From [Archangium] primigenium (GTDB lineage: Bacteria; Myxococcota; Myxococcia; Myxococcales; Myxococcaceae), in assembly GCF_016904885.1 (NCBI RefSeq), contig NZ_JADWYI010000001.1:7113224-7177223 (forward strand): 64,000 bases of DNA, in the 5' to 3' direction. Made by a program: the position numbers and the translations under genes. Below are positions 1 to 55,300 of this stretch, piece after piece; the first letter of the stretch is position 1, and each line of letters starts with the position of its first letter. The notes under the pieces are model-generated. The model made no database searches and was not told the origin of the DNA. It saw only the letters and a list, made by a program, of their open reading frames with translations.

Positions 1-851
1 GCGAGGGCGAGGCGTGCACCCCCTTCGACAGCCCCACGGTGCAGGCCTCGGGCACCAAACGCTTCGCGGACGGCACGCCCTTCGAGCGCGCCGGGTGCAC
101 CAGCCGCCCCTACCAGGACGCGCCCTGGACGAGCGGCCACTGCAACTGGACGGACGCGGAGCTCGAGTCCTTCTTCCGCCAGCAGCTCGCCCAGCCCGCG
201 GGCCCCGAGTCCCAGGTGTTGGTGCACGCCATGGGGGACAAGGCACTCACCCAGGTGCTCGACGCCATGGAGGCCACGGGTGGAGCGGCCGCCTGGAAGG
301 GCCGCCGGCTGCGGGTGGAGCACGGCACCATGCTCTACAGTGCCAACGACGTCGCCCGGGCCAGCGCCCTGGGCGTGTACGTGAGCCAGCAGGGCAACCA
401 CCTGGCCTTCGTCGACCCGGTGGATGGCGTGCCCTCCTACGCCAAGCGCTTCGAGGGCGACATCTTCGTGCAGATGGATCCGATCCGCTCGCTGGCCACG
501 GCGGGCCTCCACCTGAACTTCGGCACGGACGGCGTGGGCTTCCCCATCTCCAGCTACCTGGACCTGGCGCTCACCACCACCCACCCCATGCGCCCGGGCG
601 AGGCCCTGCCCATGCGTGAGGCCCTGGTGGCCTACACCCGGGGCTCGGCCGAGTCCGCCTTCGACGAGGACAAGCGCGGCTCCATCCAGGTGGGCCTGGA
701 CGCGGACTTCCAGGTGCCCACGGTGGACGTGCTCCAGGAGGGCCTGCCCTTCACGGCGGTGGCGAGTGCCATGGCCCACGCCACCTTCATCGCGGGCAAG
801 CCCGTGTGGGACGACGGCAGCCTGACGCCCGAAGGTGGTTGGCGGCAGTAG
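1..851 (+). CDS. Amidohydrolase-family metal-dependent hydrolase, C-terminal part; 5' end lies outside the window
   Basis: Reading frame is open from window start; motifs HAMGDKA, VEHGTML and NFGTDG are typical of amidohydrolase-3 family C-termini. Confidence 0.5.
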   Translation, partial: EGEACTPFDSPTVQASGTKRFADGTPFERAGCTSRPYQDAPWTSGHCNWTDAELESFFRQQLAQPAGPESQVLVHAMGDKALTQVLDAMEATGGAAAWKGRRLRVEHGTMLYSANDVARASALGVYVSQQGNHLAFVDPVDGVPSYAKRFEGDIFVQMDPIRSLATAGLHLNFGTDGVGFPISSYLDLALTTTHPMRPGEALPMREALVAYTRGSAESAFDEDKRGSIQVGLDADFQVPTVDVLQEGLPFTAVASAMAHATFIAGKPVWDDGSLTPEGGWRQ

Positions 852-2363: not shown

Positions 2364-2576
2364 TCAGGTGCGCGGCGGCCACCACCAGGTCCGCTCGGGC
2401 TGGGGCGCCTTGAGGTCCTGCTGGAGGTTGCCGTCCGCGACGAGATGGTCCGTGGGCTTGAGGACGTGCAGATCCACCCGACCGTCCTCGTACGCCGTGG
2501 TGATGACGGCGGGACGGGCCTTGCCGTCGACGTTAGTGAGGACGATGCGGCCGGGGCTGGGCTTCTGCTGATTCAT
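2364..2576 (-). CDS. Small hypothetical protein
   Basis: 70-aa ORF, no recognisable motifs. Confidence 0.25.
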   Translation of the reverse strand: MNQQKPSPGRIVLTNVDGKARPAVITTAYEDGRVDLHVLKPTDHLVADGNLQQDLKAPQPERTWWWPPRT

Positions 2577-2969: not shown

Positions 2970-3548
2970 ATGCACGACGCCGACATCCGCCGGGCGCTTC
3001 TCGGGCGCCTTGCCGCTCTCCACGCAGGCGTGCCGGACGTCGTCGTGCGTGAGGAGTTGGGCCTGGAGCAGGGGCAGTGCTTCGTGGACGTGGCGGTGCT
3101 CGCTCACGCGCTCCACGGCTATGAGCTCAAGAGCGAGCGCGACACGTTGCGCCGGCTGCCCCGACAGGTGGAGGTGTACGGGGCCGTGCTCGACAAGGCC
3201 ACGCTCGTGGTGAGCGCCACCCACCTGGCTGCCGCCCTTCCCCTCCTTCCCTCCTGGTGGGGCGTCGAAGTGGCCACCACGCAGCAGGGTGGCGACGTGC
3301 GCCTGGAGACCGTGCGCGAGCCCGGGGCCAACCCCCAGCAGCAGCCGCGCTCCGTGGCCCGGTTGCTCTGGCGCGAAGAGGCCCAGGCGATCCTGGAGGC
3401 GCTGGGGGCGGCGAGAGGGGTGCGCGGCAGGTCGCGCGAGGTGCTCTTCGCCCGTCTCCTCGAAGTTCTGTCGCCGCCCGCGCTCACCGCGGCTGTCTGC
3501 CGCTCGTTGAGGGCGAGGACCTCGTGGGGGCCCGAGCGGGCGCCGTGA
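2970..3548 (+). CDS. PD-(D/E)XK nuclease-fold protein (MmcB/sce7726-like)
   Basis: Segment FVDVAVL...GYELK fits the D...(D/E)XK restriction-endonuclease-like core; size about 190 aa. Confidence 0.4.
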   Translation: MHDADIRRALLGRLAALHAGVPDVVVREELGLEQGQCFVDVAVLAHALHGYELKSERDTLRRLPRQVEVYGAVLDKATLVVSATHLAAALPLLPSWWGVEVATTQQGGDVRLETVREPGANPQQQPRSVARLLWREEAQAILEALGAARGVRGRSREVLFARLLEVLSPPALTAAVCRSLRARTSWGPERAP

Positions 3549-3839
3549 GACGCGCGAGGCTGTAAAAAGCACACCCCCACCCTCAAAAAACCGGCCGCCC
3601 GGCTCGGATTTGGATTGCTCGGCGCGGTGCAATCTCGCGCTCGCGGCTACCCCACGGCACCCCACCGGACTCTCCGGCCGAAACTGTCCGACGACCCCCC
3701 GAAAAATCGGGGTGAAGGGCCCTACCCCGGCCTCTAAACGCCCGGAATCACATCCGGGGTGCCCGCCGGAGGGGGTGCGGAAAGGAGCAAAACGGCGCGC
3801 GCCACGCCCCTTCTGAGGGGTGTCACCTCGTCACCCACG

Positions 3840-4832
3840 ATGGAGCGCCCCATGTCGAAGCAGTCGAAGCCCGCCGCCCTCACCTCTCCCACCACCCCGG
3901 CCTACGTGCCCCCGCCCGAGCTCGTGGCCGCCGCCGAGGCGTCCCTCGGAGGCGCCTCGGAGCACGAGCGTTCCGACTCCGCCCGGGCGTACATGGCCTA
4001 CGGCCGCGCCACCGCGCACCGCTCGGCCGTCACCGGCAACGAGCTGCCCGGCTTCACCCTCTGCCCCACCCTCGTCCGGGCTGGCTGGCTCGAAGTGGTG
4101 CGCGAACTGCGCCCGGACGCCGAGGTGGAGCGGGCGCGGGCGGGGTTGGTGGCGGTGGCGAATTCGATGAACCAGGAGATCGCCGAGGCCCAGCAGAAGC
4201 TCGACGACCTCAATCAGGAGATCGCCACGCTCTCCCAGCAGAGGGACGACATGCGGGGCGTGGTGGTGAGGGGCATCAACGTCCGTGAGGGCAAGCCCCT
4301 CTTCGACGAGGTGGTGGTGAGTCTCGCGATCGCCACGGGCTCCGAGGCGATGGCCGACCAGCACGGCATCGTGGTCGTGGGGCACCGCGAGGAGGCGGAC
4401 GGCCTGCCCCACACGTACCTCCTGCAGGACCTGTCGCTCCAGGCCCCGGACCCGTCCGCCTGGGCGAAGGTGGCCGTGGATGCCGTGCACCGCTGGGCGC
4501 ACTGTGCTCCACCCCAGAAGGCGTACGTCCTCGCGGAGGAGAACACCGGGGGCGCCATGGTGGCGAACATCATCCACGCCGTGGATCCCTCGGTGACGGT
4601 GAAGACGGCGCGCATCCTCGCCACGTCGGAACTCGCCTCCTCGGTGGACGACAGCGAGGAGTGCCACATCGATCCCTTCCTCATGGGCATCAGCCAGATC
4701 TCCGCGGCGGCGAAGGACTTGGCCAAGGCCCAGCAGGACGGCCAGGGCGAGGTGGCCGCGCTCGTCACGACCACGGCCAAGGCGCTGCACGAGCGCGTGA
4801 AGGCGCTCGCCCTGCCCGCCTCCGAGCGCTGA
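3840..4832 (+). CDS. Terminase large-subunit nuclease-domain paralog with unrelated N-terminus; first catalytic Asp replaced
   Basis: C-terminal 170 aa align residue-by-residue with the C-terminus of the terminase at 5512..7050 (LLQDLSLQAP..AWAKVAV.AVHRW), but VSVDPATGE is VSLAIATGSE here. Confidence 0.5.
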   Translation: MERPMSKQSKPAALTSPTTPAYVPPPELVAAAEASLGGASEHERSDSARAYMAYGRATAHRSAVTGNELPGFTLCPTLVRAGWLEVVRELRPDAEVERARAGLVAVANSMNQEIAEAQQKLDDLNQEIATLSQQRDDMRGVVVRGINVREGKPLFDEVVVSLAIATGSEAMADQHGIVVVGHREEADGLPHTYLLQDLSLQAPDPSAWAKVAVDAVHRWAHCAPPQKAYVLAEENTGGAMVANIIHAVDPSVTVKTARILATSELASSVDDSEECHIDPFLMGISQISAAAKDLAKAQQDGQGEVAALVTTTAKALHERVKALALPASER

Positions 4833-4876
4833 TGCGCGCACCGGGGAGGAGGCGGTAGCACCCCTTCTCTCCGGGC

Positions 4877-5512
4877 ATGGCCCGGCCCAAGGGACTTCCG
4901 CCAGCGTTTGGAGGCGAGCCCTCGGACGGGCCTGGGGAGGACGCGCCCGAGCTGCCGGATCCACTGGCGGGCTACCATCCCCGGCCTGGCGCGCGCGGCC
5001 CGCGCACCTCCCTCACCCGGGCGATGATCCCCATCATCGCCCGGGTGCTCGCGCGCACCGGGGTGCAGCGCATCGCCGCGGCGAAGGCGGGCACCACCGA
5101 GGCCTGCCTGGGCAAGTGGCTGAGCCGGGGCCGGGACGCCGTGGAGCGCCGCAAGACGAGCCTCTACACCGAGCTGCTCTTCGCGTGCGAGGAGGCGTGG
5201 GCGCACCGCTACAGCCACCTCATCGAACTGGGCGAGCGCACGGTGGTGGACCGGCACGCCAACCCGAGATTCATCACCTGGCTCATGGGCGTCACCGCGC
5301 CCAAGCAATTCACCGTGCCGCGCGAGCCCGCCGCCCAGGCCCAGGGCCACGCGCTCGGCCCCGCCTTCGAGCTCGTGTCTCCCGAGGCCGCCGCCAAGGC
5401 AATCCACGAGAAGCTCCTGCGCTTCCTCGAGGAGGACGACAAGAGCCAGGTGCCCCCACCCACCGAGGAGCCCGCGCCGAGCCCTGACGGGGCCGCGCCG
5501 GGGGCCGGGTAG
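4877..5512 (+). CDS. Putative terminase small subunit / DNA-binding packaging protein
   Basis: 211-aa ORF immediately upstream of and overlapping (TAGTG) the terminase large subunit start. Confidence 0.4.
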   Translation: MARPKGLPPAFGGEPSDGPGEDAPELPDPLAGYHPRPGARGPRTSLTRAMIPIIARVLARTGVQRIAAAKAGTTEACLGKWLSRGRDAVERRKTSLYTELLFACEEAWAHRYSHLIELGERTVVDRHANPRFITWLMGVTAPKQFTVPREPAAQAQGHALGPAFELVSPEAAAKAIHEKLLRFLEEDDKSQVPPPTEEPAPSPDGAAPGAG

Positions 5513-7050
5513 TGGTGGCCTCGGCCGCCGTCCAGGAGGCGGGCGACAACCTCCTGGCCGGGCTCACCATCATCCGCCCGGAGACGCACGGCCGCTATTC
5601 GCTCTCCGAGCTCGCCGTGCGCAAGTTCCGCGCGCAGCTCGGCCGCGCGGGGCGGCTCGCGGCGAGCCCCTCCATCACCGAGCACCTGCGGGCCACGCAG
5701 GCCGAGGTGCTCGCCTGGCACTACGACCCCACGCTCTGGCGCCGCCCGGTGCAGACGCCGCCCGCGGGCGTCTGGCGCACTTGGTTCCTCCTGGGCGGGC
5801 GCGGCGCCGGCAAGACGTACGCCGGCAGCGTGGCCGTCCTCGAGGAGGCGATGGCGGACCCCGAGGCCCGCATCCTCATCGTCGGCCCCACCGACTCGGA
5901 GATTCGCAAGACGCAGTTGGAGGGGCCCAGCGGCATCCTCTCGCTCGCGCCGCCCTGGTTCCGCCCGGTGCACCGGCGCAGCAAGCGCACGCTCGACTTC
6001 CCCAACGGAGCCAAGGCCTTCTACGTCCCCGCGCAGAACCCGGACAAGTTGCGCGGGTACAACGTCTCGCTCGTCTGGGCGGACGAGGTGGTGGCCTGGA
6101 AGAAGTCCCCGCTGGAGGTGTACGCGGAATGCCGGCGCGTGGCGCGAATCCAGACGCCGCGCATGCGCGCGCTCGGCCTGCCCGCGCGCCTCATCATCAC
6201 CACCACGCCCCAGCCCACCCAGCTCTTCCGGGAGATTCTGGCGGACCGGGACGGCCTGGTGCTCGCGCGCAGCAGCACCTTCGACAACGCGGCCAACCTG
6301 GACGGCAAGTACCTCGCCTACGCGCGCCGGGTGCAGCACACCACCGAGGGCCGCCGGGAGTTCCTCGGCGAGCTCTTCTTCGCGCTCGACGCCTGCCTCT
6401 ACCGCAAGGTGGACTGGAATGCCTCGCGCGTGCCCTCGGTGGAGGCCATTGCTCCGCGGGAGGGCAAGGCGCTCTTCGACAAGGTGGTGGTGAGCGTCGA
6501 CCCCGCCACCGGCGAGAAGAAGGGCAGCGACTTGCACGGCGTGGTGGTGGAGGGCATCCGCGAGGAGGCGGACGGCCTGCTGCACTCCTACGTCCTGCAG
6601 GACTTGTCCCTCCAGGCCCCGGAGGCCTCGGCCTGGGCGAAGGTGGCCGTGGAGGCCGTGCACCGCTGGAAGCACCTGGCGCCGCCGCGGAAGACTTTCA
6701 TCTTCGCGGAGACGAACACCGGCGGCTCCATGGTCAAGCAGACCATCCGCACGGTGGACGCCAAGGTGCGGGTGAAGGGCCAGCGCGCCATGCAGTCCAA
6801 GGCCGAGCGCGCGGCGCCCGTCACGGCAATGGCCGAGGTGGGGCTCATCCACATGGTGGGCAAGCACCACAAGCTCGAGGAGCAGCTGGGCAAGTTCACC
6901 GGCCAGGACGGCGGCCACGGGCGGGATGACCGGGCGGACGCCTTCGCGTGGCCGGTGTTCCTCTACGTGTGCCCGAAGCGGCAGAACGCCGGCGTCGCCG
7001 GGCGCCCGGCCCAGGCGGAGGAGGACACGGACGCCGAGGACGACGAGTAG
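5512..7050 (+). CDS. Phage terminase large subunit
   Basis: Walker A GRGAGKT, Walker B VSLVWADEV, C-terminal RNaseH-like nuclease motifs; GTG start overlapping upstream stop. Confidence 0.85.
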   Translation: MVASAAVQEAGDNLLAGLTIIRPETHGRYSLSELAVRKFRAQLGRAGRLAASPSITEHLRATQAEVLAWHYDPTLWRRPVQTPPAGVWRTWFLLGGRGAGKTYAGSVAVLEEAMADPEARILIVGPTDSEIRKTQLEGPSGILSLAPPWFRPVHRRSKRTLDFPNGAKAFYVPAQNPDKLRGYNVSLVWADEVVAWKKSPLEVYAECRRVARIQTPRMRALGLPARLIITTTPQPTQLFREILADRDGLVLARSSTFDNAANLDGKYLAYARRVQHTTEGRREFLGELFFALDACLYRKVDWNASRVPSVEAIAPREGKALFDKVVVSVDPATGEKKGSDLHGVVVEGIREEADGLLHSYVLQDLSLQAPEASAWAKVAVEAVHRWKHLAPPRKTFIFAETNTGGSMVKQTIRTVDAKVRVKGQRAMQSKAERAAPVTAMAEVGLIHMVGKHHKLEEQLGKFTGQDGGHGRDDRADAFAWPVFLYVCPKRQNAGVAGRPAQAEEDTDAEDDE

Positions 7051-7052
7051 CC

Positions 7053-7076
7053 GCACCCCTTCTCCCCGGGCATGGC
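7053..7076 (+). promoter_or_regulatory. Conserved intercistronic motif CACCCCTTCTCCCCGGGCATGG (instance before portal gene); other instances at 4858..4881, 8437..8460, 13464..13486, 21364..21386, variants at 3801..3821 and 9277..9290
   Basis: Near-identical 20-22-mer ending in the start codon of seven prophage late genes. Confidence 0.45.
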
Positions 7077-8436
7077 CTCCCTCCGCTCGCGCTTCAAGGC
7101 CGCCCTCACGGGCCTGCTCCTCGGCCCCTCCGCGGGGCGCCCCCTCGTGCACACCCTGCCTCTCCTGCCCTTCTCCCCGCGGAGCGGCTCGCGCCAGGTG
7201 CTCGCCGCCTACCGGGAGAACGCGTGGCTGCAGGCGGTGGTGGACACGGTGGCCGAGGCCACGGCCACGCCCCGCTGGCGGGTGCTCCTCCCCGTCACCA
7301 GCAAGGGCAAGGGCCTCGCCCGCTCCCTCAAGGCCGTGGGCGCGCTCGAGCGGACGCGGGACGGACGCCTCTCCCGGCACAAGGCGCTCGCCCGGGGCGT
7401 GGAGCGGGGGGACCTGGTGGAACTCCACCAGCACGAGCTGCTCAACTTCCTGGACAGCCCCCACCCCCTTTTCACCGGCCGCGACCTGCGCAAGCTGCAG
7501 CAGGTGCACCTGGACCTGGTGGGCGAGACGTTCCTGTACCTGCGCCGCACCCTGGACGACGAGCGGCGCGTCGCGGGCTACGAGGTGTTGCCCCCGCACT
7601 GCGTGCACCAGACGCCCACCGACACGGGCACCCACTACGTCGTCACCTACAACCGCGCCGCCACCAGCGTCCTGCCCTCGGAGATTGTGTGGCTCAAGCG
7701 GTTGGATCCGGAGAACCCCTATGGCCGGGGCGTCGGCCGAGGCCTCGCCATGGGGGACGAGCTCGACACGGCCGAGGCCCTGCAGGTGGCGCGCAAGGCC
7801 ACCTTCCTCCGCGGAGGCCTGCCCGCCGCGGTGGTGGGCATTGACGAGGGGGGCGCCGGGGACGACAGGGCGGAGGAGATCGAGTCCGAGTACCAGGAGA
7901 AGTTCAACCGGCCCGAGGCCGCCGGGCGCGTCTGGTTCGTCAACGGCAAGGTGTCGCTCAGCCAGATTCAGCAGGACTTCCGCGCGCTGCAGATGGACGA
8001 GACGGAGAAGGGCCTGCGCGACTTCGTGCGGCAGTGCTTCAACGTGTCCCCCGAGCTGCTCGGCGACCTGACGAGCGCCAACCGCTCCACGAGCGAGGAG
8101 GCCAAGTACACGCTCGCGGAGTACGCCGTGCTTCCGCGCCTGGAGTTTCAGCGCAACCATTACCAGCTGCACGTGGTGCCGCGCATCGACCCCGACGCGC
8201 TGCTCGAGTACGAGGACCCGAGGCCGCAGAGCTGGGAGCGCACGCTGGCGGTGGTGACGTGCTCGCCCAACGAGGGCTTCACCTGGAACGAGGTGCGCGC
8301 CCTGGCGGGCTTCGCGCCGGACCCGTCGCTCAACGGCCGCCGCCCCCGTCCCCTGCCGGGCGCGATGCCGGTGCAGGACAAGCCCCAGGCGCCGAAGAAT
8401 CCCCCGCCCCCGCGCGGGCCCGCCAAGGCGGCGTGA
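7072..8436 (+). CDS. Phage portal protein
   Basis: 454-aa ORF directly after terminase; size and position typical of HK97-type portal. Confidence 0.65.
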   Translation: MASLRSRFKAALTGLLLGPSAGRPLVHTLPLLPFSPRSGSRQVLAAYRENAWLQAVVDTVAEATATPRWRVLLPVTSKGKGLARSLKAVGALERTRDGRLSRHKALARGVERGDLVELHQHELLNFLDSPHPLFTGRDLRKLQQVHLDLVGETFLYLRRTLDDERRVAGYEVLPPHCVHQTPTDTGTHYVVTYNRAATSVLPSEIVWLKRLDPENPYGRGVGRGLAMGDELDTAEALQVARKATFLRGGLPAAVVGIDEGGAGDDRAEEIESEYQEKFNRPEAAGRVWFVNGKVSLSQIQQDFRALQMDETEKGLRDFVRQCFNVSPELLGDLTSANRSTSEEAKYTLAEYAVLPRLEFQRNHYQLHVVPRIDPDALLEYEDPRPQSWERTLAVVTCSPNEGFTWNEVRALAGFAPDPSLNGRRPRPLPGAMPVQDKPQAPKNPPPPRGPAKAA

Positions 8437-9340: not shown

Positions 9341-10210
9341 ATGTCGAAAGTCCCCAAGGCCCTGCAGAAGCTCGTCGACGCGAGTGTGCAGAAAGCCGTC
9401 GCGGCCGACCGCGCCCTCCGCACCCAAACCGCCCCCGCCGACGTCTCCGGCAAGGGGGCGGCGGGCAAGATCGACATGCGCACGGCCATCGGCTTGCGGC
9501 TGAAGAGCCTGTACATGAACCACCCCCTCTTGGGCATCCAGGCGAGCGACAGCGAGAAGGCCTGGGTGAAGAAGTCCGCCAGCGCCTACGAGGGCGTGTA
9601 CGGCCAGGGCGGCTCCCTCCTGCGTGAGGAGTACAGCTCGGAGATCATCGAGTTCCTCCGGCCCGCCACTGCGCTCCTGCGTGCGGGCGCCCGGACCCAG
9701 ACGTACGTCGGACGACTCACGATCGGCCGCCTCAACGGTGGCGCCGTGGCCCAATTCGTGTCGGAGGCGCAGGCGCCCACGGTGAGCGAGGTGAAGACGA
9801 GCGCCGTCGTGCTCGGCTCTCATAAGCTCATGGGGCTCTACGAGCCGAGCAATGACTTGCTCCGCAATCCGGACATCGACAGCGCAGGCATCCTCTCGGA
9901 CGATCTGTTCGCCGCCATGGGGGTTGCCTCGGACCAGGCGGGCCTGCTTGGCGACGGCACGGGCCCCAACCCCCTGGGGCTCCTGCACCAGGTGAAGACG
10001 GCCAACAAGGTGGATGGCGTGGCCATCACCAACGCCAACCGCAACAACGTCATCCGCTTCCTCGACAGCTTCGAGCACCGCGTGAAGTCCAGCAACCTGT
10101 CGTTGGAGGGCAACAAGCCCTTCTGGACGTTCTCCAGCGGCGTGGAGATGGCGCTCAAGGGACTGACAGCGGAGATCACGTGGCTTGAGGCTGAAAGCCA
10201 CAGGCTTTGA
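9341..10210 (+). pseudogene. Major capsid protein (HK97 fold), 5' portion; ORF runs into an IS630-family insertion
   Basis: Position after protease; sequence has HK97-MCP-like character; the reading frame ends inside sequence that encodes the transposase C-terminus on the other strand. Confidence 0.55.
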
Positions 10211-11177
10211 ACCATTGGGCCGCATCCGAGGCAGAAATGAGCAGCATGGCGTCCTCGACCGCCTGACGAAGTGCTGTGACGGTGCGCGCTTCTGCCGTCC
10301 GGAGCAATCCCTTGAGCTTGGACCATGCGAATTCAATGGGGTTGAGGTCGGGTGAATACGGAGGCAGGTAGAGCACCTGGCCTCCATGCTGCTCAATGAG
10401 GGCGATGGCTTCCTTTCGAAAGTGCGCCCCCGCTCTGTCCAACAAGACGATGTCTCCAGGCCGCAGCATCGTCAGGAGATAATGGCTGACGAAATGGAGG
10501 AAGACATCCCCAGTCGTGGCTCCCTCATTCATCATGACGGTTTCCAGCCCATCGAGACTGAGCGCGCCAATCATGCTCAGCACGGTGCCTCGATTGCGAG
10601 GGACAGCTTGCGCCACGCGTTGTCCCGTCGGGGCCCAGGCTCGTTCGCGCATCATGTCGATGGTGCAGCCCGCCTCGTCGATGCTCAACACCTTGGGAGT
10701 CGGAAGCTCGGGTTGTCGTTGGTGAAAGGCCTCTCGTTGGGCTTGGACGTCGGGTCGTTCGCGTTCGGTCGGGTAGCGGACTTTTTTTGAGCGTGTAGCC
10801 CAATCGCGTCAGCGTCCGGCCGATGGTTGCCACGCTCACTCGCACGCCTGTGCGCTCCGTCCACGCTCGCGCCATCTCGGCTCGGGTCCGGTCGGGTTGT
10901 TCATCGACCAGGCGACGAAAAGCGCTCAGCTCCCCATCGCCTATTAGGTGGGTTTGCCCACCCCCGTGCGGCCGCGGAGCAGGGCTTCCCGTCTCACGAG
11001 TGAGACGCATCCAGCGTTGGACCGTGGCCCTACCCACTCCGAAGCGACGTGCCAATTGCTTGGACGTCCCCTCTCCTTGCTGGAAGGCCTCAACCACCCG
11101 TTGCCTCAAGTCCATCGAGAGTGCTGTCGTTCCCATCGCTCCCGATCAACCCCTGGGCGCCTCAGCTCATTCGATTC
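10160..11177 (-). mobile_element. IS630-family insertion sequence (copy 1) inserted in the capsid gene; boundaries approximate
   Basis: Transposase ORFs fill the interval; imperfect terminal inverted repeat around ctgacagcggagatc (left) and gattcccgctgtgac (right). Confidence 0.6.
10176..11136 (-). CDS. IS630-family transposase (HTH ORF 10525..11136 plus DDE ORF 10176..10691, joined by frameshift or disrupted)
   Basis: N-terminal HTH (RFGVGRATVQRW) and C-terminal DDE region (YLPPYSPDLNPIEFAWSKLK) typical of IS630/Tc1. Confidence 0.7.
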
Positions 11178-11473
11178 CCGCTGTGACGTTCGACTCGGGC
11201 GGCTTCGTCTACCGCGACCAGTTGGAGCAGGGCAAACTCAACGGCAAGCCCGTGTTCATCACCGAGGCCTTCGGTGACAACCACCTCGTCTTCGGGCTCG
11301 CCAACCAGATCTACTTCGGCATGGACCTCAAGGGCGGAAAGAACATCCTTCTGGAGTTGAGCCAGCCGCGCTTCGCGGAGGACGTCACCACCATCAAGGC
11401 GATCACCTACATCGACTGGAAGCTCCGGCACGACACCGCGCTGGCCTACTCCAACAACGTCACCCTCAACTGA
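11177..11473 (+). pseudogene. Major capsid protein, 3' portion downstream of the IS
   Basis: Frame 2 continues with AVTFDSGGFVYRDQ...AITYIDWKLRHDTALAYSNNVTLN, consistent with an HK97 MCP C-terminus; same frame as the 5' part. Confidence 0.45.
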
Positions 11474-13455: not shown

Positions 13456-13480
13456 CCGCCCCGCGCCCCTTCTCCCGGGC

Positions 13481-13918
13481 ATGGGACGCGGCGCGCGCTT
13501 CAAGGTGAAGGTGGAGGTGGACAAGCGCCTCCTGCTCTTGCTGCGCGACAACCCCGAGGTGGCGCTCAAGGCCATGGACACGCCGCTGCACGCGGCCACC
13601 CGGCGCATTCTCGACATCTCCCTCTTCCTCGTGCCCCGCGGCGGTGCGCCGGACGACCCGGTGGACCTGGCGGACACCGCCTTCCTCTCCGGGCCCCTGC
13701 ACAACCCCGAGAAGAAGAGCACCACCTGGACGTGCGGCTACGCGCACCCCGCCGCCGGCGCCATCCACCAGGGCTTCCACTGGGGCGCGGCGCTGCTCGC
13801 GCCCCCGGACTTCCTGCGCCGCGCCACCAAGGGCGTGCGCGCCGAGCTCAAGAAGCCCGTGGGCAAGGCGCTCATGGGGGCCATCGCTTCTCTCACCCCG
13901 AAAGGACACCGCCCATGA
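13481..13918 (+). CDS. Phage structural protein (tail terminator-like)
   Basis: 145 aa; preceded by conserved CCCCTTCTCCCGGGCATG motif; overlaps next gene by ATGA. Confidence 0.3.
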   Translation: MGRGARFKVKVEVDKRLLLLLRDNPEVALKAMDTPLHAATRRILDISLFLVPRGGAPDDPVDLADTAFLSGPLHNPEKKSTTWTCGYAHPAAGAIHQGFHWGAALLAPPDFLRRATKGVRAELKKPVGKALMGAIASLTPKGHRP

Positions 13919-26553: not shown

Positions 26554-26754
26554 ATGATGGACGTGGACGTCACGACGGATGCGGCATGGACGGTCGACGA
26601 GGCCTCGCGCTTCCTCGGCATCAAGCCGAAGACGCTCTACCGGAAGGCCGCCGAGGGCACGGTCCCCTCCTTTAAGGTGGGCGGAGCGCTTCGGTTCAGT
26701 CCGGCGCGACTGGCCGAGTGGCGCGAGGCGCAGGCGCGCGGGGGTCGGGGGTAG
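26554..26754 (+). CDS. Excisionase-family helix-turn-helix protein
   Basis: About 66 aa, WTVDEASRFLGIKPKTLYRKAAEG HTH; immediately upstream of the integrase. Confidence 0.55.
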   Translation: MMDVDVTTDAAWTVDEASRFLGIKPKTLYRKAAEGTVPSFKVGGALRFSPARLAEWREAQARGGRG

Positions 26755-26756
26755 CC

Positions 26757-28358
26757 ATGGCCTTCGCCTTCTTCCGCCCCAGCACGCGCACCCAGAAAGC
26801 GGGGGCGAGCCTCGTTCGCTACCGGGGCCAGTACGGCGTCTGGTACGTGGGCTACAAGGACGATCACGGCCGACAGCGGCAGAAGAAGTCCGCCGCCTGC
26901 ACTCAGGCCGAGGCGGAGAAGCTCGCGGCGGAGCTCGAGCGGGCCGCGGAGCGCGTACGCCTGGGGCTGGACGCGAAGGTGAAGGAGGACATGCCCTACC
27001 GGGAGGCGGTGGCGCTGTACCTGGAGTCCCTGCCGCCCGAGTACCGCAGCAAGCCCCACCTGGAGTCGCGCTTCCGGTTGAGGATCCTCCCCCACCTGGG
27101 CGAACTGCCGTGCCGGGCCATGACGCCGGCGGACGTGAAGCGGATGCTCGCCGCCAACAGCACCGCCGCGCCGCAGACGCGCGAGCACCTGCGCATCGCG
27201 GTCCAGGGCAGCTACACCTTCCTTATAGAGGAGCTGAAGCTCGTCACGGGGGAGAACCCCGCGGCGAAGCTGGGCCGGGTGTCCATCCCCCGGCGTCGGC
27301 CGAAGTTCCTCCAGCAGGAGGACGTGCCGCGCCTGCTCGCGGCGGTGCCGGAGCAGCACCGGGCCGTTTTCACCGTGGCGGTGGGGACGGGGCTGCGCAA
27401 GGGGGAGCTCCTGGCGCTGCGCTGGGAGGACGTGGACCTTGTGCGCCGTTGCCTACATGTGGCGCGCAGCAACGACAACGACACCACCAAGGGCGGGCGC
27501 ACCCGGGTGATTCCGCTGCCCGCCTGGCTGGTGCCCCTCGTGCAGGAGCTGGCGCGCGAGGCCCGGAGCGCCTTCGTCTTCCCGGACCCCCGCGGGGCCC
27601 AGCAGAAGAAGTGGGTCGCCTTCCACCGCATCATGAAGACGGCCCTCAAGCAGGCGGGCTTGGTGGAGGGGTTCGACCACCGCTGCGTCACCCGGGGGAC
27701 CCGCCGGGGGTGTGGCCACGTGGAACGGCGCGCCGGAAGCGCCCGGGCGTCCTGCCCGACGTGCTCCGCGCTGCTGTGGCCCACTGCGGTGCCACTTTCT
27801 TTGAGCTTCAAGGACCTGCGCTCCACCTTCGGCACATGGGCCTACGCCCAGACCGGGAACATCCGCTTCGTCCAGGAGGTGCTCGGGCACCAGGACGTCC
27901 GGGTGACCGAGCAGCGCTACAGCCACGTGCTGGAGACGAACCTTCTCCAGCTCGCGGACCAGGTCCGCTTCGGGGCGCCCCCCAGTCTTATCAGCCAGTT
28001 GCAAGTGACGGACGGGCAAGCCCGGGGAAGACCGGGCACGGGCGAGAACGTCTTAACCAGGAGTACAGAGGGAGCAGGACACATGAGGGGAAACGAGGGG
28101 AAACGAGGGGAAAGCCGGGTAGACGTAGGAGTCGGCCTCCGAAGCCAAAGGCCGCTGGTTCGACTCCAGCATCGCGCACACAGGCAAGGGCCCGGAATCG
28201 TTGGGGAAAACCCCCATCAGTTCCGGGCCCTTCGCTTTCCCCGGACTCGCCTTGCAGCAAGGATGCAGCAAAGCCGTTCGCGGCCACTCCTTGCCGCACG
28301 GCGCTCCCCCTCAAGACCTTCCCGGTGGCGGCCTCCGCCTCGACGCTCGGCGGGATGA
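26757..28358 (+). CDS. Tyrosine integrase (phage integrase family) with Cys-rich insert; true 3' end uncertain because the ORF reads through the att repeat
   Basis: Catalytic-domain R...HxxR...Y layout (LRKGELLALRWEDV, VTEQRYSHV); insert CVTRGTRRGCGHVE...CPTC. Confidence 0.8.
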   Translation: MAFAFFRPSTRTQKAGASLVRYRGQYGVWYVGYKDDHGRQRQKKSAACTQAEAEKLAAELERAAERVRLGLDAKVKEDMPYREAVALYLESLPPEYRSKPHLESRFRLRILPHLGELPCRAMTPADVKRMLAANSTAAPQTREHLRIAVQGSYTFLIEELKLVTGENPAAKLGRVSIPRRRPKFLQQEDVPRLLAAVPEQHRAVFTVAVGTGLRKGELLALRWEDVDLVRRCLHVARSNDNDTTKGGRTRVIPLPAWLVPLVQELAREARSAFVFPDPRGAQQKKWVAFHRIMKTALKQAGLVEGFDHRCVTRGTRRGCGHVERRAGSARASCPTCSALLWPTAVPLSLSFKDLRSTFGTWAYAQTGNIRFVQEVLGHQDVRVTEQRYSHVLETNLLQLADQVRFGAPPSLISQLQVTDGQARGRPGTGENVLTRSTEGAGHMRGNEGKRGESRVDVGVGLRSQRPLVRLQHRAHRQGPGIVGENPHQFRALRFPRTRLAARMQQSRSRPLLAARRSPSRPSRWRPPPRRSAG

Positions 28359-29616
28359 GCGGTTGGGCTCGTAGCCCGAACTGGAGGCTGTCCACCTCCG
28401 TGCGGAGATAGTCCGGCGTCAGGTGACCGTAGACCTCGCTGGTGATGCGCGGGTCGCGATGTCGGAGGAGCTTCTGCACCCCGACCAGCGGAACGCCCGC
28501 CCGTAGGAGCAGCGTCGCGGTCGTGTGCCGCAGATCATGGAACCGGATGGGCCGCACCTGGGGCGAGGGCCAGAGCCGCATGCCGCACCGTGGGCACTGC
28601 CGGGGCTCGGCGTCTGGCGCCATCTCCGCGTCCCCGCAACCCTTCCGGCGGCAGACGTGGCGGTAGCCCGTCACGACGCCCGCGCGCCCCAAGGCCCGGC
28701 GCAGCACGTCCTCCAAGGCCACGTCCCGGCGCATCATGGAACCGTCCTCGGAAGGGAACACCAGCGCCGAGGGCGAGCGGCGGATCGCCTCCTCCAGGAA
28801 GGGCACCAGTTCGGTGGCGATGGGGATGACGTCCGCGTGGCCCCCCTTGGTCGTGTCGCGCTGCCATGACCGGCCCACGGTGAGCAACCGGCTCGGCACG
28901 TCCACGTCCGTCTTCCGCATGGCCAGCAGCTCTCCCTTGCGCAGCCCCGTATAGAGGGCGGTGGCGAAGAGAGGGCGCCAACGCTCGGGCAGCGCGTCGA
29001 ACAGGCGCGGCACTTCCTCCATGCGCAGGAAGTCACCGATGCGGCGCGGGACGGTGCGCTTCTTCACGTCCGCGACGGGGTTGGGTCCGCTGTAGCGTCC
29101 GACCGCGCGCGCCTCATTGAACGCACGGCTGACGAACCCCCGCAGGTGGTTGATCGTCTGCGGAGAAAGCTCCTGCTCCTTCTCCTTCAAGAACGCCCGC
29201 AGCCGGGGCGCCGTCACCGCCGTGAGGGGAAGCGCGGCGAGGCTGGAGGGGAGCAGGTGGCGCGAGACCTGGCTCAAGTTGCTCGCATGGGAGGGAGAGT
29301 TGACCGAGCAGGTGTCGAGCCACCAGCGCAGCAACTCCGCGAGTGTCCCGCCGCCGTCCTCGGGCAGTGGCGCCTCCAAGCCGAGCCGTTGCCGCTCGGC
29401 CTTCTGCTCAAGCTCCGCCGCGATCCGCCGGGCCTCCGTCTTCGTGCGCGCCTGGGTCACCTTGTCGCGCCACCGCCCCCCCGCGTCCTTGAACCGCAGA
29501 TACCACTTGCCCGCCTTCTCATAGACGCTCGCCATGGCTATCGCTTCCCCTTCTGGCGCGTCGGCTTCGCGGACGCGGGCTCGGTGGTCGTGAGGTAGCC
29601 CCGGGCCGTCAGCCAC
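27991..29616 (-). CDS. Tyrosine integrase 2 (paralog of 26757 integrase); 3' end reads antisense through att copy A, real stop probably near 28180-28250
   Basis: HDLRHTTATLLLRAGVPLVGVQKLLRHRDPRITSEVYGHL catalytic block; Cys-rich insert CRRKGCGDAE...CPRCG. Confidence 0.8.
   Translation of the reverse strand: MADGPGLPHDHRARVREADAPEGEAIAMASVYEKAGKWYLRFKDAGGRWRDKVTQARTKTEARRIAAELEQKAERQRLGLEAPLPEDGGGTLAELLRWWLDTCSVNSPSHASNLSQVSRHLLPSSLAALPLTAVTAPRLRAFLKEKEQELSPQTINHLRGFVSRAFNEARAVGRYSGPNPVADVKKRTVPRRIGDFLRMEEVPRLFDALPERWRPLFATALYTGLRKGELLAMRKTDVDVPSRLLTVGRSWQRDTTKGGHADVIPIATELVPFLEEAIRRSPSALVFPSEDGSMMRRDVALEDVLRRALGRAGVVTGYRHVCRRKGCGDAEMAPDAEPRQCPRCGMRLWPSPQVRPIRFHDLRHTTATLLLRAGVPLVGVQKLLRHRDPRITSEVYGHLTPDYLRTEVDSLQFGLRAQPLIPPSVEAEAATGKVLRGSAVRQGVAANGFAASLLQGESGESEGPGTDGGFPQRFRALACVRDAGVEPAAFGFGGRLLRLPGFPLVSPRFPSCVLLPLYSWLRRSRPCPVFPGLARPSLATG
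28085..28114. repeat. Short tandem repeat (GAGGGGAAAC) x3 adjacent to att copy A
   Basis: Direct reading of the sequence. Confidence 0.6.
28137..28241 (+). repeat. att-type direct repeat copy A: 3' 42 nt of a tRNA-like gene (T-arm GCTGG-TTCGACT-CCAGC, acceptor ATCGCGC-A) plus degenerate downstream hairpin
   Basis: 53 nt identical and about 105 nt at roughly 88% identity to copy B at 37306..37410; no matching 5' tRNA half upstream. Confidence 0.55.
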
Positions 29617-49347: not shown

Positions 49348-52300
49348 CTACTTCCGCACCTGCACCTCCACATCCGTACCTATCGCGACACGCAGCTCGC
49401 GCAATTCCTCGGAGGTCGCGAAGACGAGCAGTTCCTTGAGCTTCGCCTTGGGCGTCACCCGGAAGGCCGAGCCGGTCTCCTCCAGCACCATGCGCTTGAC
49501 CGGTTCGCACTCGCCCGCGGCCAGGAGGCCCGCGCGCGCCGCCGTCAGCTCCACGTGGTCGAAGTACTGGCGGACATCCGCGGGTGTGGCCACCGGCACG
49601 TAGACGCGTGCCACCTTGGCCAGCGCCGCGCGACCCTGCTCGCTGAAGCCCTTCTCCAGCACGCGCCGCTCGGCGTCCACCCCGCGGGGGTCCACCGTGA
49701 GGCGCAGGTTGGGCACCACCAGGCTGAGCGCCGCCTGGACCACCGCCTCGAGCCGCTCCGGGGCCAGGCGCTGGCTCCACGCCAGTTCCGGGCGTGCGAG
49801 CGCGAACGCGCGGCCCAGCATGTAGTACGCCTCCTTCTGGCCCTGTTCGGCGAAGAAGCGGCCGCCGGCGCGAATGCACGCCGGATGCGTCTGCAGCACC
49901 TCCACGTGGAGCCGGGGGTCTGGCGTCGGCTCGTTGGAGCGCTTGGCCATGTTCTCGCGTCGGGCCACCAGGTGCGGCGAGTACAGCTCCACCGCGTCCA
50001 TTCCGAAGAGCCGCGCCACGTAGCGGTAGTGCTGCACGTGGTACTCCTGCGAGCTCGGCAGATCGATCCGGTGCTTCTTGGGGATGATCTGGTAGTTCGT
50101 GAAGGGCACCGCGTACAGGTGGCCGATCTGCTCGAAGAGCAGGCCCATCAGCTCGGTGAAGGGCCCGCGCAGCCGGGGATGCAGCAGGTGCGACTGCCAC
50201 ATGCGATCCGGCAGTGCCCGCTGGGCCACCTCCTTGAGCTTCGCGTAGGGACCGAGCCGCGAGAGGATCTCCTTCTCGTCCTCCCCCGCCTCGCCGAGCA
50301 GGCCCGACACGGCTTGGGCGGCCATCCACGCGCCGTCGTAGTCCTTGCGCCGCGCGAACAGCCGCACCAACTGGGAGCAGACCTTGTGCGTGTCCGTGGT
50401 GTGCGGCAGGGCCCGGCGCAGCGCCGCGATGGCCTCGTCCTCCTTGCCCGGGGAGGCCGCCGCCAGCTCGGCGTAGGTCTCCTGCACGGAGGCATCATCG
50501 GGCAGGCCCTTGGCGACGAGCCCGTAGGCCGCCACCGCGTTCTCCTGGTTCTTGAGCACCTGGCGGTAGAGGTCACCCAGCGCGCGCCACAGCCCCATGC
50601 GCGCCCCGTGCGTGTCGGGCGTCTTCGGCATGCGCCCGATCATCTTCGCGTAGTTCTCCTCCAGCGCGCGCCACTGGCCCGCACCACCCAGCATCGCCTC
50701 GAGCGCGCTGAAGGCCTCGATGAATCGGTGATCCAGGTCCAGCGCCGTGTTGAAGGCCTCCGCCGCGCCGTCCACGTCCCGCAGCTCGTCCCGACGCAGC
50801 TCGCCGAGCGCGAACCACACCCGCCGGGCCTTGTTCGGCTCGGACGCCAGCGCGGGCAGCCGCAGCATGCGCTGCAGCATGTCCGCGGCCTTCTGGCTCT
50901 GGCGCGTCTCGCGCAGCAGCACATAGAGCGCGTCCAGCACCTCGAGCGACTCCGGAACCAGCTTGAGCGCGCCGGAGTACGCGTCGATCGCCTGGTACGG
51001 GTCCTTGAGCTTCTCGCGCGCGAGCTGACCGAGATCCAGGAGCACCTTCGCCTTGGCCTCGCCCTCCAACACCTGGGCGAGCTGCTGGCGCAGGTCACCC
51101 GCGCGCTCCCACCGGCCCGAGGCATCCATGAGCGTCACCAGTGCGCGCAGGGAGGCCTCGTGGTTGGAGTCCACCGAGAGCGCCTTCTCGAAGTGGTTCT
51201 GCGCGCGGTCCGTCTGGTTCAGCTTGGCGTGGATGTCACCCAGCTGCCAGTAGACCTCCACCACCTCCATGTCGGTGAGCTCCTCGCGGTGGTGGATGAG
51301 GATCGTCTGGAAGATGCGCAGCGCGTCCTCGTAGCGCTTGGCGTGCTGCACGAGCAGGTGGCCGTAGCCCTCGAGCACCGGCAGGTAGGTCGCGTCGAGA
51401 TCGTAGGCCTTCTTGTACGAATCGAGCGCCTTGCCGCGGTTGCCCAGCTTGTCCGCCACGTAGCCCAGGCGGTAGAGCTGACGGCACAGCTCCGCGGCCA
51501 GCGCCGTGTCCTTCTCCGCGATGGCGCGCTCGGCCATGCGGCGCACCACGATGTCGAGCATGCGCTCGCACGCGAGCCAGTCCTCGCGCGCGCTGTAGAC
51601 CTCCGACAAGGGCTGGGCGGCCTCCAGGCTGTCCGGGGCGTAGCGCAGCGTCTCCTCGTAGTAGTGCGTGGCCGTCTCGGGGTCGCCCTTGGTCTCGGCG
51701 TTGTAGCGCGCCACCTCGAGCAGGGCCTTGGCCTTGGCCTCGGCGTCCTCGGTCTGCTGCGCCTCCTGCAAGAGGGTCTGCTCGTAGCCGCCCCAGTCCT
51801 TCTCCTGCTCCTGGATGCCCTTGAGGGCCCGGATGCTGGCCAGGTGGCCCGGGTCGATCGCGATGGCGCTCTGGTAGGCCGTACGCGCGCTGCCCGAGTC
51901 CATCAGCATGTCCTCGTGCATGCGGCCCATGCGGTAGTACAGCTCCACCGCCTCGGGGGTGTGCCCCGCGAGCTGCGCCTCCTGCTGTAGGACGTCCAGC
52001 GCGTAGGGCCAGTTGCCGCTGCGCTCGTAGAGGTTGCCCAGCGCGTGCAGCGCGGGACGGCAGCCCGGATCCATGCTCAGCGCGTAGTGGTACGTGTTGA
52101 CCGCCCGGTCCACCTGCTTGAGCTGCTGGTGGTAGACGTTGCCGATCTCCACGTACAGCTCGGCCTGCTCCTGCGTGGACGTGGCCAGCTGGAGCTGCCG
52201 CTCGTAGGCGACCACCAGGTCCTCCCACCGGCCCTGGTCCCGACGCAGGCGGATGAGGGTCTTGATGGCCTGGAGGTTCTGCGGGTCGATGGCGAGCACG

Positions 52301-55300
52301 CCCTCGATGAAGGCGTCCGCGTTGGCCGGGTTCTGGTAGGTGTCCTCCCAGATGCTCGCCGAGCGGAACAGCACCCGCACGCGCTCGCGGTAGTCGGTGA
52401 TGACCTCGAGCATGCGCTCGTAGATGGCCAGCAACTCCGCCGGTTGATCCAACCGCGTGTGCAGCCGCTCCAACGACTCCAGGGCCTGGAGGTTGTAGGG
52501 CTCGAACTCGAGCGCCTGCCGGTAGGCGGCCACCGCGGGCTCGTCGTCTCCGATGTCGCGCTCGTAGACGCTCGCGACGTCGAGCTGGATGCGGGCCCGC
52601 TCCTCGACGGTGGCCGCCAGGTCGCGCGCGCGCATCAGCGTGGAGGCCACGTCCTTCCAGGCCTTCTGGCGACGGTAGAGCGCGGTGAGCACGCCCAACG
52701 TCTCCGCGTCCGGCTCCAAATCCAGGGCCCGCAGCAGCGCGCTCGCGGACTCGTCGGGGTCACCCTGCTCGTCATGGACGCGGGCGATCTCCCGGAGGAT
52801 GGACTTGCGCGTCTCGATGGAGTCCGCGGCCTCGATCTTCTGCTCGAGGGCCACCACGTACTCGCGCGAACGGCCCCGGCGCTGGAACATCCCCGCCAGG
52901 CCATCGAGCGCGGTGACGTTCGTCGGATCGAACTCCAGGATCTTCCGCAGCGAGGACTCCGCCGCCTGGGCATCGTCCAGCTTCAGGTCGTGGACGCGCG
53001 CCAGCGTGGCGTACATGCGCTCGGCCAGGGGACCTCGCGGCAGGGCATCCGCCACCTCCTCGTAGACGGCGGCCAGCTCCTCGTGGGAGCCCGTCTCGTC
53101 GGCGAGTCGCTCCACCTCCTCGCGCAGCGTGTCGTCCGAGGCGTCGAGCTGCAGCGCCCGGCAGAGCGCCAGGAAGGCCACGTCCTTCTGGCCCAGGCGC
53201 TCTTCCTGCACGCGCGCCAGTTCCTTGAGGGTGGCCAGCTTCTCCTCTTCCGTGACGAGGTGCGGCAGGTAGCGGTCCACCACCTGCGCGTAGGCCCGCC
53301 AGTCGTTGTTCGTCCGGTAGAGCTCGCACACGCGCCCGTACGCGTCCCGGTGGGCGGGGTCCAGCTCCAGCACCTTCTCCAGCGCGCCCGCGGCGAGCTC
53401 CGGCTTGTTGCCCGCGCCCGACCACAGGTCCGCCACGGCGAACCACGTGGCCACCGCCAGGTCGCGCTCCTCGGCCTGCAGGTGCACCTGCACCTTGAGC
53501 TCGAGCGCGCGGACGGCGTCGTTGTAGGCCCGCAGGGACACGAAGAGCGCGTGGACCCGCTCCAGGTCCGCCACCGCGTGGGGCTCCACTTCCAGCGCGC
53601 GGCGGGCCGCGTCCAGCGCCTCCTCGCGGCGACCCACGCCGGAGAGCACCTCGGCCAGACGCAGGCGCAGCGCCTTCACGCCCTCGGCCGACTCCTGCAA
53701 CGGCACGAGCCGCCGCAGGATGCCCACCAGCTCCTCGGCGGGCCCCGTCTCCTCGTACAGCTCGCGCAGCGTGTCCAGCACGCCCCGGTGGCGGGGATCG
53801 CGCTCGAGCGCCGCCTTGAGGTGGCCCACCGCCGTCTCGGGCTGCTTGAGCAGGCGGTAGAGCACCTGGCCCAGGCGCTCGTTGAGCCGCACGACCTCGC
53901 GCGGGTCCAACGTCTGCGCCAGCCGCTCCGCCAGGAGCGTCCGCAGCTCCTCGTGCCGCCCCGCCCGCTCGTACAAGGCCTCCAGCGAGGTGAACGCCTG
54001 CTCGTTGCGCGCGTTCTTCGCCAGCAGCTCGCGGTACAGGTCGATGGCGCCGTCCAGTTGGCCCAGCCCCTCGGAGGACACCTGCGCCATGCGCATGAGG
54101 ACGCGCTCGCGCTCCGGGCCCGTGACGCGCTCGGACTGCAGCTTCAGGATGTTGTACAGCTTGTCCTGGGCTCCGGCCGCGTCATAGAGGCCCTCGAGCA
54201 GCCGCGCCGACGCGAGGTGCGAGGCGTCCAGCGCCAGCACCTGCTCGAAGGCGGACGCCGCGCGGTCCATGCTCTGGAGCTTCTCCTGGGCGAGCTGCCC
54301 CAGGCGGAAGAGGAAGCCCACCTTGTCGGCGGTCTGCTCCGCCGTGGCGGCGAGCGCCTCCAGCACTGGCGCCAGCTCCTCCCAGGCCTCCAGCGTGATG
54401 TACAGCCGGTCCAGCGCCACCAGCGACCGGGTCTGCGACGAGGGGTCCAGCGTGCGCGCGCGCTCGTAGTAGATGATGGCGCGCTCGGGCTCGCGCAGGC
54501 GCGACTCGAAGAGATAGCCCAGCTTGAGGCACATCTCCGCCGCGTCGCGCACCTCGGCCACGCGCGGCAAGGCCTCCTCGTAGGCCACGACCAGCTCGTC
54601 GTAGGAGCCCGCCGCGTCCGTGGCGTTCTCCAGGCGCGCGCGCAGCTCGCGGTCGTTCGGGTCCTCCTTGAAGGAGCGGAAGAGCGCGAGGAAGGTGAGC
54701 TCCGGCTCCCCCTGGCTCTCGCGCAGCGTGGCCAGCTCGCCGAGCAGCGTCTTGCGCTCGTGCGCGTCCGGGGACACGCCGACGCGCGTCTCGATGAGCG
54801 AGGCGAGCCGCGCCACGTCCCCGCTCGCCCGGAAGGCGCGCAGCAGCGTCTCCACCGCGAGCAGGTTCTGCGGCTCGCGCTGCACCAGCGCCTCCAGGCG
54901 GCCCACCGTGTCGGCGTGGTTGGGCTGCACGGAGAGCACCGCGCCGTAGAGCGCCAGCGCGCCCGCCTTGTCGAGCAGCTTCGTCTCGCGCACCACCGCG
55001 AGGCGGAACTTCAGCTCCAGGCCCTCCTCCGGCGTCACCAGCGCGATGCGGCGGGCAAGCACGTCCGCCAGCTCCGGCCAGCGCTCCAGCTTCTGGCACA
55101 GGCCGTCCATCCGGGTGAGCGCCGCGGCGTCATCCGGCTTCACGTCCAGCAGGCGCCGCAGGGTGGCCAACGCGCCCAGGCCATCCTGGAGCTCCGCCTC
55201 CTGCAGCACGGCGATCTGCAGCAGCACCGAGGCCCGGCGCGCCGGCTCCTCGGCGCTCGCGAGCTGACGGCGCAGCACCTCCAGCAGTTCCTGGGGCGTG

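Follow-up and report, generated by a model that had tools for sequence, protein, structure and literature searches.

Phage satellites encode proteins that interfere with packaging, such as SaPI Ppi and PICI Rpp, which bind the small terminase subunit of the helper phage. Pseudo-enzymes are catalytically dead paralogs that have been reused as binding or regulatory modules. For the nuclease domain of the large terminase subunit (TerL), no decoy, dead paralog or truncated copy was found described in the literature. Here, we analysed a 64,000-nucleotide stretch of the [Archangium] primigenium genome (the window). Coordinates below are window positions, and P#### and L### designate the proteins and loci that were compared. 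Directly upstream of terS, the window contains an open reading frame (ORF), 3852..4832 on the plus strand (+), that encodes 326 residues and has a piece of a TerL nuclease domain in its centre. The anatomy and evolutionary history of this chimeric ORF very probably reflect an event in which an existing gene took up that piece, called the cassette below, in frame in its variable centre.

Three kinds of proteins can be compared with the ORF product. The cassette resembles the TerL nuclease domain (Terminase_6C, PF17289, T4 gp17-type) in its 62% identity over 118 residues, in the order of strands b1-b5 and in its structural matches. It differs from that domain in covering about two thirds of it, in having a broken acidic triad, in being devoid of an ATPase domain and in being placed between unrelated modules. 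The ORF also resembles members of an unnamed family encoded upstream of terS, including P0034 and P0042, with which it shares this slot, about 60% identity in the N-module and 59-73% identity in the C-module. P0001, the ORF product, and its ortholog P0009 differ from the rest of the family by the TerL cassette in their centre. Finally, SaPI Ppi and PICI Rpp offer an analogy, as they are small accessory proteins acting on the terminase by binding, which is the mode of action that may apply here. However, they are not derived from TerL, are encoded by satellites and target TerS. No sequence relationship with them was seen (no library match), and PADLOC gave no match of the ORF to interference or exclusion proteins. 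As in pseudo-enzymes, the cassette appears to keep the fold pattern, with catalytic residues lost independently in several copies.

Anatomy of the chimeric ORF

The frame is open to 4832 (+) from 3759, 3840 or 3852, and its G+C content at third codon positions (GC3) is 0.93, typical of local coding frames. The product is 100% identical to P0001, an NCBI hypothetical protein of Archangium primigenium annotated from the ATG at 3852; an alternative in-frame ATG is found at 3840. Three parts can be distinguished, with GC3 values of 0.93-0.97 that match those of real genes. N-module A, 3852..4226 (+), corresponds to residues 1-125 and was delineated with alignment A1, a tblastn map, HMMER and the AlphaFold secondary structure. 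It comprises a helical domain (residues ~18-87) followed by the beginning of what is predicted to be a long helix or coiled coil (residues 90-141, 4119-4274), with weak coiled-coil matches in Pfam. The TerL-derived cassette, 4266..4619 (+), corresponds to residues 139-256. The C-module, 4647..4829 (+), residues 266-326, is a predicted two-helix unit (DDSEECHIDPFLMGI...ALHERVKALA).

The resident terL gene, 5512..7050 (+), encodes a protein of 512 residues that matches Pfam Terminase_6N and Terminase_6C as well as PHROG terminase families. Its Walker A motif is intact (GGRGAGKT), LVWADE is present and its acidic residues are D330, E400 and D472/473/476. BLASTP aligned the ORF product with this TerL without any gap, with 73 identities over 118 residues (62%, E 7e-45; ORF residues 143-260 when counted from ATG 3840, TerL residues 310-427). 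At the DNA level, 4284-4604 matched 6457-6777 with 77% identity over 324 nt (blastn, E 2e-67), and the sequence is not of low complexity. The counterpart of the cassette in terL is 6457-6792. In tblastn searches, the cassette region matched the terminases of many phages. No similarity to TerL residues 1-309 and no Terminase_6N match were observed, showing that the ATPase domain expected of a TerL is absent. A complete nuclease domain is not present either, as no terminase match was obtained for the ORF in Pfam (E <=0.1) or in the PHROGs (E <=0.01). The final ~70 residues are unrelated to TerL and make part of the conserved C-module of the family. This module also ruled out that these 70 residues are the remnant of a frameshifted TerL C-terminus.

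Part of what an earlier note had reported on this comparison is borne out. The peptides that it quoted are correct, the similarity is not confined to low-complexity sequence, and the N-terminal part (~140 residues with no TerL similarity in BLASTP) is unrelated to the ATPase domain. Its statement that the first metal-binding Asp is lost also holds, TerL having S328-V-D330-P-A-T-G where the ORF has S157-L-A159-I-A-T-G. The co-linearity that it described between the last ~170 residues and the TerL nuclease domain reflects a strong homology, but one that spans only 118 residues and stops short of the C-terminus.

The position of the first catalytic Asp, TerL D330 (6499-6501), is occupied in the ORF by Ala159 (4326..4328 (+)). 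The second acidic position, TerL E400 (6709-6711), is kept as Glu229 (4536..4538 (+)), and the NTGG motif is kept as well. Nothing in the ORF corresponds to the third acidic segment of TerL (GRDDRADAF, 470-478), as the nuclease domain is present there without its C-terminal third. The cassette therefore does not hold the complete acidic triad (D, E/D, D) that goes with nuclease activity. In P0009, the first Asp is kept and the Glu is replaced by Asn. Both D and E are kept in all 16 TerLs compared, whereas each of four cassette copies has lost one of them: D to A in P0001, E to N in P0009, and D to T in an extra ORF of locus L003 as well as in P0061. The Lys residue of ..GGSMVK.., invariant in TerLs, is lost in 4/4 cassette copies. 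With its first Asp replaced and the segment of the third acidic residue missing, the cassette is almost certainly nuclease-dead, as judged from its sequence. That different catalytic residues were lost in the two orthologs argues against selection for catalysis. Thus, the earlier proposal of a likely inactive nuclease is upheld by the D330 to A replacement and the missing third segment. Of the other two catalytic residues, Glu229 is retained and the third acidic residue is gone with its segment.

Just left of the cassette, 4247-4277 match 6528-6558 at 26 of 31 nt (DMRGVVVRGI as compared to DLHGVVVEGI in TerL), out of order with respect to TerL. This match could be due to chance, or it could have been left by another small conversion or by a template switch.

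The modular family and the history of the capture

In a search of 5.8 billion proteins, P0002 (227 aa) and P0003 (216 aa), both from metagenomes, were found to match the N-terminal ~125 and C-terminal ~60 residues of the ORF and not to contain the TerL piece. Their genes are directly upstream of terS homologs, and one of the contigs also shares the left-flank genes of the window. An exhaustive HMMER search with P0002 and P0003 gave 93 cluster representatives. Most family members have ~170-230 residues with a short centre and are devoid of the TerL piece (P0002, P0003, P0010-P0018, L004); P0001 and P0009 carry the TerL cassette instead. Related loci were fetched with a TerL alignment and came from Archangium minus, an Archangium metagenome-assembled genome and six IMG/VR contigs. 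In most of them, the slot upstream of terS holds some variant of the family. The family member is on the same strand and directly upstream of terS in the window, L001, L002, L003, L004, L006, L010, L011 and L012, and ~1 kb upstream of terS in L008.

The N-module A of the ORF (..ARAY.AYG..GRSAVTG.ELP.F..C..LVRAGWL..) is 59-65% identical to those of L001, L002 and L011. The N-module (~80 aa) also exists as a stand-alone small protein and in fusion with other domains. The C-module (~60 aa), which in the ORF has the family pattern ..[IV]DPFLMGI..I..A.RDLA.A....ALH.RVKALA with 59-73% identity, is shared more widely than any other part of the family and occurs joined to at least three different N-modules. 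Between them, the centre ranges from a short linker (L004, P0013) through coiled-coil segments (P0002, P0003) to an unrelated insert of ~240 residues (P0012, L006; gene at 5990/6137-7309 of L006). Short central motifs recur in varied combinations, such as GPVASMTLTAWTPE.GEALVNFAQ in P0012, P0034, P0061 and P0080. That central cassettes are shared in this way indicates that they are exchanged by recombination. A second shared central cassette has the form HGEDPGRW..LHQGG..A..MAL.LM.GPRGG. Searches of Pfam, PHROGs, NCBIfam and PADLOC with the central inserts of the relatives gave no meaningful match. Profile scans of genome contigs and viral contigs with family alignment A1 gave no match, and a metagenome scan with alignment A4 recovered only the already known contig. 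In cultured phages, the closest TerL is ~36% identical, and a homolog of the host protein was not found. The related myxophages that the earlier note had in mind for interference tests are therefore without basis, no cultured phage being close. Overall, by sequence comparison, the ORF is a member of an unnamed, fast-evolving modular family at the head of the packaging operon of Archangium-type prophages.

N-module A was also encountered together with another protein. A small protein of PHROG 2293, ending in ..W(W/F)WPPR., is encoded at 2364-2576 (-), 1.3 kb upstream of the chimeric ORF. In other genomes, this small protein and N-module A are in one polypeptide: P0020 (N-terminal side), P0046 and P0064 (C-terminal side). 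As far as sequences can tell, these fusions hint at a functional link between both. L010 5788-6060 was noted in the same connection.

The ortholog P0009 (307 aa, soil metagenome, locus L011) has the same architecture, the same junctions and the same neighbours, a sce7726-family gene and terS. In both proteins, the left junction consists of the coiled-coil sequence ..AEAQQKLD.L.QE.., a short spacer and then ..REGK.LFD, and the right junction of ..VD..V.VK[ST] followed by the C-module. The capture therefore predates the split of the two lineages. The synonymous distance (dS) between P0001 and P0009 amounts to 0.42-0.48 for the flanking modules, as compared to 0.62 for the cassette. Cassette-free forms, which are far commoner, share a central element, ..L.VDVS.L...L.., that is replaced by the cassette. 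Thus, in P0001 and P0009, a central segment of ~30 residues was exchanged in frame for a TerL nuclease core of ~115-120 residues comprising b1-b5 only. Since cassette-free forms are commoner and the full-length donor family is obvious, the event was a capture and not a loss.

We then compared the cassette with possible sources. It is roughly equidistant from all terL genes of the clade, with 67-74% nucleotide identity to the seven compared at the DNA level. Sites shared exclusively amount to 2 with the resident terL as compared to up to 6 with another terL, and in a neighbour-joining tree, built without support values, the cassette branched outside the tight TerL clade. The synonymous distance was nominally lowest to the resident terL (dS 0.39 as compared to 0.47-0.72). 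Codons 49-66 agree with the resident terL at 35 of 36 nt, and this tract may be a short gene-conversion patch. A template/variable repeat pair of a diversity-generating retroelement was also considered. It was ruled out because 63 of 84 mismatches are at non-A positions of the terL copy and affect all four bases. No reverse transcriptase turned up among the scanned ORFs, no search having been aimed at one.

Constraint, proposed role and rival explanations

The same truncated core was found in three contexts: P0001/P0009, P0061 and a stand-alone ORF of A. minus (L003). All four copies begin near b1 and finish just after b5, the C-terminal third being absent from all of them. The A. minus ORF (143 codons, 9644..10075 of L003, between terL and the portal gene) is a diverged duplicate of the portal start fused to a TerL segment. 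It begins with the start motif described below and ~25 codons of the portal start and continues with TLFNNIIVSVTPATG ... VEVRCVRSMR. Its GC3 of 0.77 is lower than that of its neighbours, and its dS to every terL is ~0.9-1.0. P0061 of A. gephyra (L012) is a family member with a different N-module and a far more diverged core, ~25% identical to TerL, that can be recognised by ..YESWKDWAPSGRPVVVLETATGGALL.. as compared to ..YHAWKGYAPSGSTWIFAETNTGGSMV.. in TerL. The TerL of A. minus itself (L003 8001-9620, 539 aa) was observed to have an internal tandem duplication of ~27 residues near its N-terminus (..LASDPEISAHLELNQAKVLVED / LASAPDLTKHLGLNQAEVLAWYY..).

Several observations bear on the constraint acting on the cassette. 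Positions that are invariant and hydrophobic in TerLs are still hydrophobic in 17/18 cases in P0001, 15/18 in P0009, 15/18 in P0061 and 14/18 in the L003 ORF. Polar TerL invariants, in contrast, have been lost in 4/16, 6/16, 13/16 and 7/16 cases, respectively, the contrast being significant for P0061 (p 4e-4). TerL-invariant columns are kept more often than variable ones (p 0.04 for P0001, p 0.03 for P0009). The cassette has a GC3 of 0.95 and no stops or frameshifts in two lineages despite a dS of 0.62; length differences between P0001 and P0009 are of whole codons only and are located near the junctions and in one loop. Over the whole gene, the proportion of non-synonymous differences is below that of synonymous differences (pN < pS, z ~2.6), and the ratio of non-synonymous to synonymous distances (dN/dS) is 0.5-0.75 as compared to 0.17-0.29 for TerL.

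With a 22-row alignment, AlphaFold predicted the order b1-b2-b3-a1-b4-a2-b5 for the cassette, with a predicted local distance difference test score (pLDDT) of ~90 over most of it. The elements predicted for its flanks are an N-module made of helices, a helix of 52 residues and a C-module with two helices. The best matches of the cassette model found by Foldseek in BFVD are TerLs (E 3e-7, root-mean-square deviation ~3 A over 116 columns), and weak structural matches in the PDB are RNase H-like folds; a PDB sequence search with TerL gave no match. An RNase H-like fold is thus predicted for the cassette. That fold-determining hydrophobic residues are kept while polar TerL invariants are lost suggests a pseudo-enzyme binding module.

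The overall best explanation, to which we assign a probability of roughly 0.5, is that the ORF encodes a chimeric accessory protein of the packaging module, with the TerL core used as a non-catalytic binding module. Such a protein would exchange sequence cassettes in its variable centre. The present cassette, unable to cut DNA, would mimic the TerL nuclease domain for binding. It would be held on a coiled-coil stalk, and the conserved C-module would tether the protein to a conserved partner of the packaging machinery encoded next door. The mimic would then modulate, or compete with, the contacts of the real nuclease domain to DNA, TerS, the TerL ATPase ring or the portal. The outcome would be either regulation of the prophage's own cleavage or interference with related phages. 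Taken separately, the binding-mimic function is put forward tentatively, its chances being less than even. A further-reaching version appears unlikely to us. In it, the dead TerL core would be a selected mimic cassette, repeatedly captured beside packaging genes and used in conflicts, and the variable payloads would be attached through the conserved C-module to a component of the virion or of the packaging machinery that is itself conserved. The cassette might poison terminase assemblies when related phages superinfect, or it might titrate immune sensors of the host that recognise TerL. STAND/Avs-type receptors indeed sense large terminases (PMC11564622).

Several points weigh against an accessory protein with a binding cassette. 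The dN/dS of the cassette between the orthologs, 0.71, is about three times the TerL value and alone not significantly below 1 (z ~1.45). The chimeric architecture is rare, with only two such proteins among the 5.8 billion searched and P0061 being a singleton, which fits sporadic, possibly transient captures. The high-confidence AlphaFold model leans on real TerL rows, and the single-sequence model had a pLDDT of 47, too poor for use. The truncated core is devoid of the C-terminal helices by which one face of the sheet is normally covered, and may therefore not fold on its own. The N- and C-modules are not recognised by Pfam, PHROGs, NCBIfam or PADLOC, which returned weak coiled-coil noise only. 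Finally, the prophage in the A. primigenium genome is defective, its capsid gene being split by an insertion sequence.

These points have to be weighed together with other explanations of the locus. The host protein may be functional and the TerL piece a tolerated passenger, a mere filler kept in frame only because the C-module downstream has to be translated. This account, possible if somewhat doubtful, fits a family centre that is highly variable in length and content, from a short linker to a ~240-residue insert. It also fits the rarity of the chimera, the cassette dN/dS and the independent drift of catalytic residues in P0001 and P0009. However, the substitutions are not random with respect to TerL-invariant and hydrophobic positions. 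The cassette is gapless relative to TerL over 118 residues, and the two chimeric genes differ in length only by whole codons, near the junctions and in one loop. The same domain boundaries are moreover found in three contexts, including the stand-alone ORF of A. minus, which has no downstream module to protect. Decay would go further than filling: the whole ORF could be a recombination scar in a decaying prophage, open only through high G+C content. The interrupted capsid gene and the many long spurious ORFs in this high-GC window are in favour of a relic. We nevertheless regard it as improbable, given an ortholog with the same architecture and junctions whose frame is undisrupted at dS ~0.4-0.6. 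The coding-type GC3 in all three parts, the pN < pS of the whole gene and the presence of the family in this slot in most related elements also speak against it.

The remaining explanations concern the origin and the activity of the cassette. The earlier note had seen in the ORF a partial internal duplication with a new N-terminus that could act as a decoy or exclusion factor, taken here as a recent duplication of the resident terL. The paralogy with TerL is real, and the nominally lowest dS and the 35/36-nt tract do point to the resident gene. Part of this proposal thus survives, as the central piece is a copy of the RNase H-like nuclease core, but it does not come specifically from the resident terL. 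The new N-terminus does not survive: the N-terminal ~125 and C-terminal ~60 residues are both pre-existing family modules. Because the capture is shared with P0009, exclusive sites with the resident terL are few and the cassette is outside the tight TerL clade, a recent duplication of the resident terL was ruled out, and we consider this version as a whole very improbable. The roles that the note proposed, a DNA-binding decoy, a packaging regulator or a superinfection-exclusion factor, may still apply to the captured piece. That the cassette is still an active nuclease using substitute residues could be imagined from the retention of Glu229 and of the NTGG motif. With the first Asp changed to Ala, the third acidic segment missing and a different catalytic residue lost in P0009, its likelihood is close to nil.

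Prophage setting and significance

The left part of the window contains a host amidohydrolase-like gene, 39..851. Small membrane-protein and holin-like genes on the minus strand separate it from a sce7726-family gene, 2970..3548 (+), the upstream neighbour of the chimeric ORF (NCBIfam NF033832, E 2e-41; PHROG 984). According to the gene table of L011, a sce7726-family gene is also directly upstream of the P0009 gene. The window's sce7726-family protein also matches the PADLOC model 'cll'. Downstream of the chimeric ORF, terS, 4877..5512 (+), encodes the small terminase subunit (211 aa). It has a weak PHROG 4102 match, and its position and sequence are conserved in all related loci. Beyond terL, the portal gene, 7072..8436 (+), matches Pfam Phage_portal (E 4e-28) and is followed by a prohead protease/scaffold gene, the capsid gene and tail genes, with integrase-like genes near 27-29 kb. 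In the region 9341-11473, a tblastn comparison with the capsid protein of L012 showed the major capsid gene to be cut into two pieces, 9572-10138 and 11192-11464, by an IS630-like element, ~10139..11191 (-), whose transposase is encoded by two ORFs that overlap (10176..10691 and 10525..11136). The prophage copy in the window is therefore defective. Further right, two tyrosine-integrase-like ORFs on opposite strands, 26718..28358 (+) and 27991..29616 (-), overlap by ~370 nt and may mark the junction between two integrated elements. A minus-strand ORF of 4089 codons (49348-61617) has a coding-type GC3 of 0.95.

The terS start codon ends a pyrimidine-rich motif, CCCCTTCTCTCCGGGCATGGCC, 4861..4882 (+), a second copy of which precedes the portal start (7056-7077). 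The two surroundings, 4858-4882 and 7053-7077, are identical at 24 of 25 nt, and the motif matched twice in the window as compared to 0 expected. In the general form CCCCTTCTCC(N1-4)GGCATG, copies are found in the window at 4861-4882, 7056-7077 and 13466-13486. The motif precedes terS, the portal gene and other late genes in every related prophage (L001-L012), including the distant L010 and L012. There is no purine-rich Shine-Dalgarno sequence between it and the ATG. A purine-rich complement that could pair with the motif is found upstream of it in the window and L002. A weaker copy, around 3806-3822, precedes the chimeric ORF by ~30 nt. The motif may be a control element of late genes. We considered whether the 24/25-nt match downstream of the chimeric ORF was the far end of a larger duplication, which was ruled out by the occurrence of the motif before many late-gene starts.

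Whatever the role of the cassette, the phenomenon is so far limited to a single, narrow lineage of prophages. Should the cassette be functional, a virus would have turned part of its own packaging enzyme into a non-catalytic module, for which no published example was found in the literature. The locus would then point to an unstudied, rapidly diversifying accessory family at the head of the packaging operon. Cassette exchange and a dN/dS of 0.5-0.75 are what one would expect of genes that take part in conflicts between phages or between phage and host. Even with the cassette as a mere passenger, the locus documents in-frame domain capture in phage genes.

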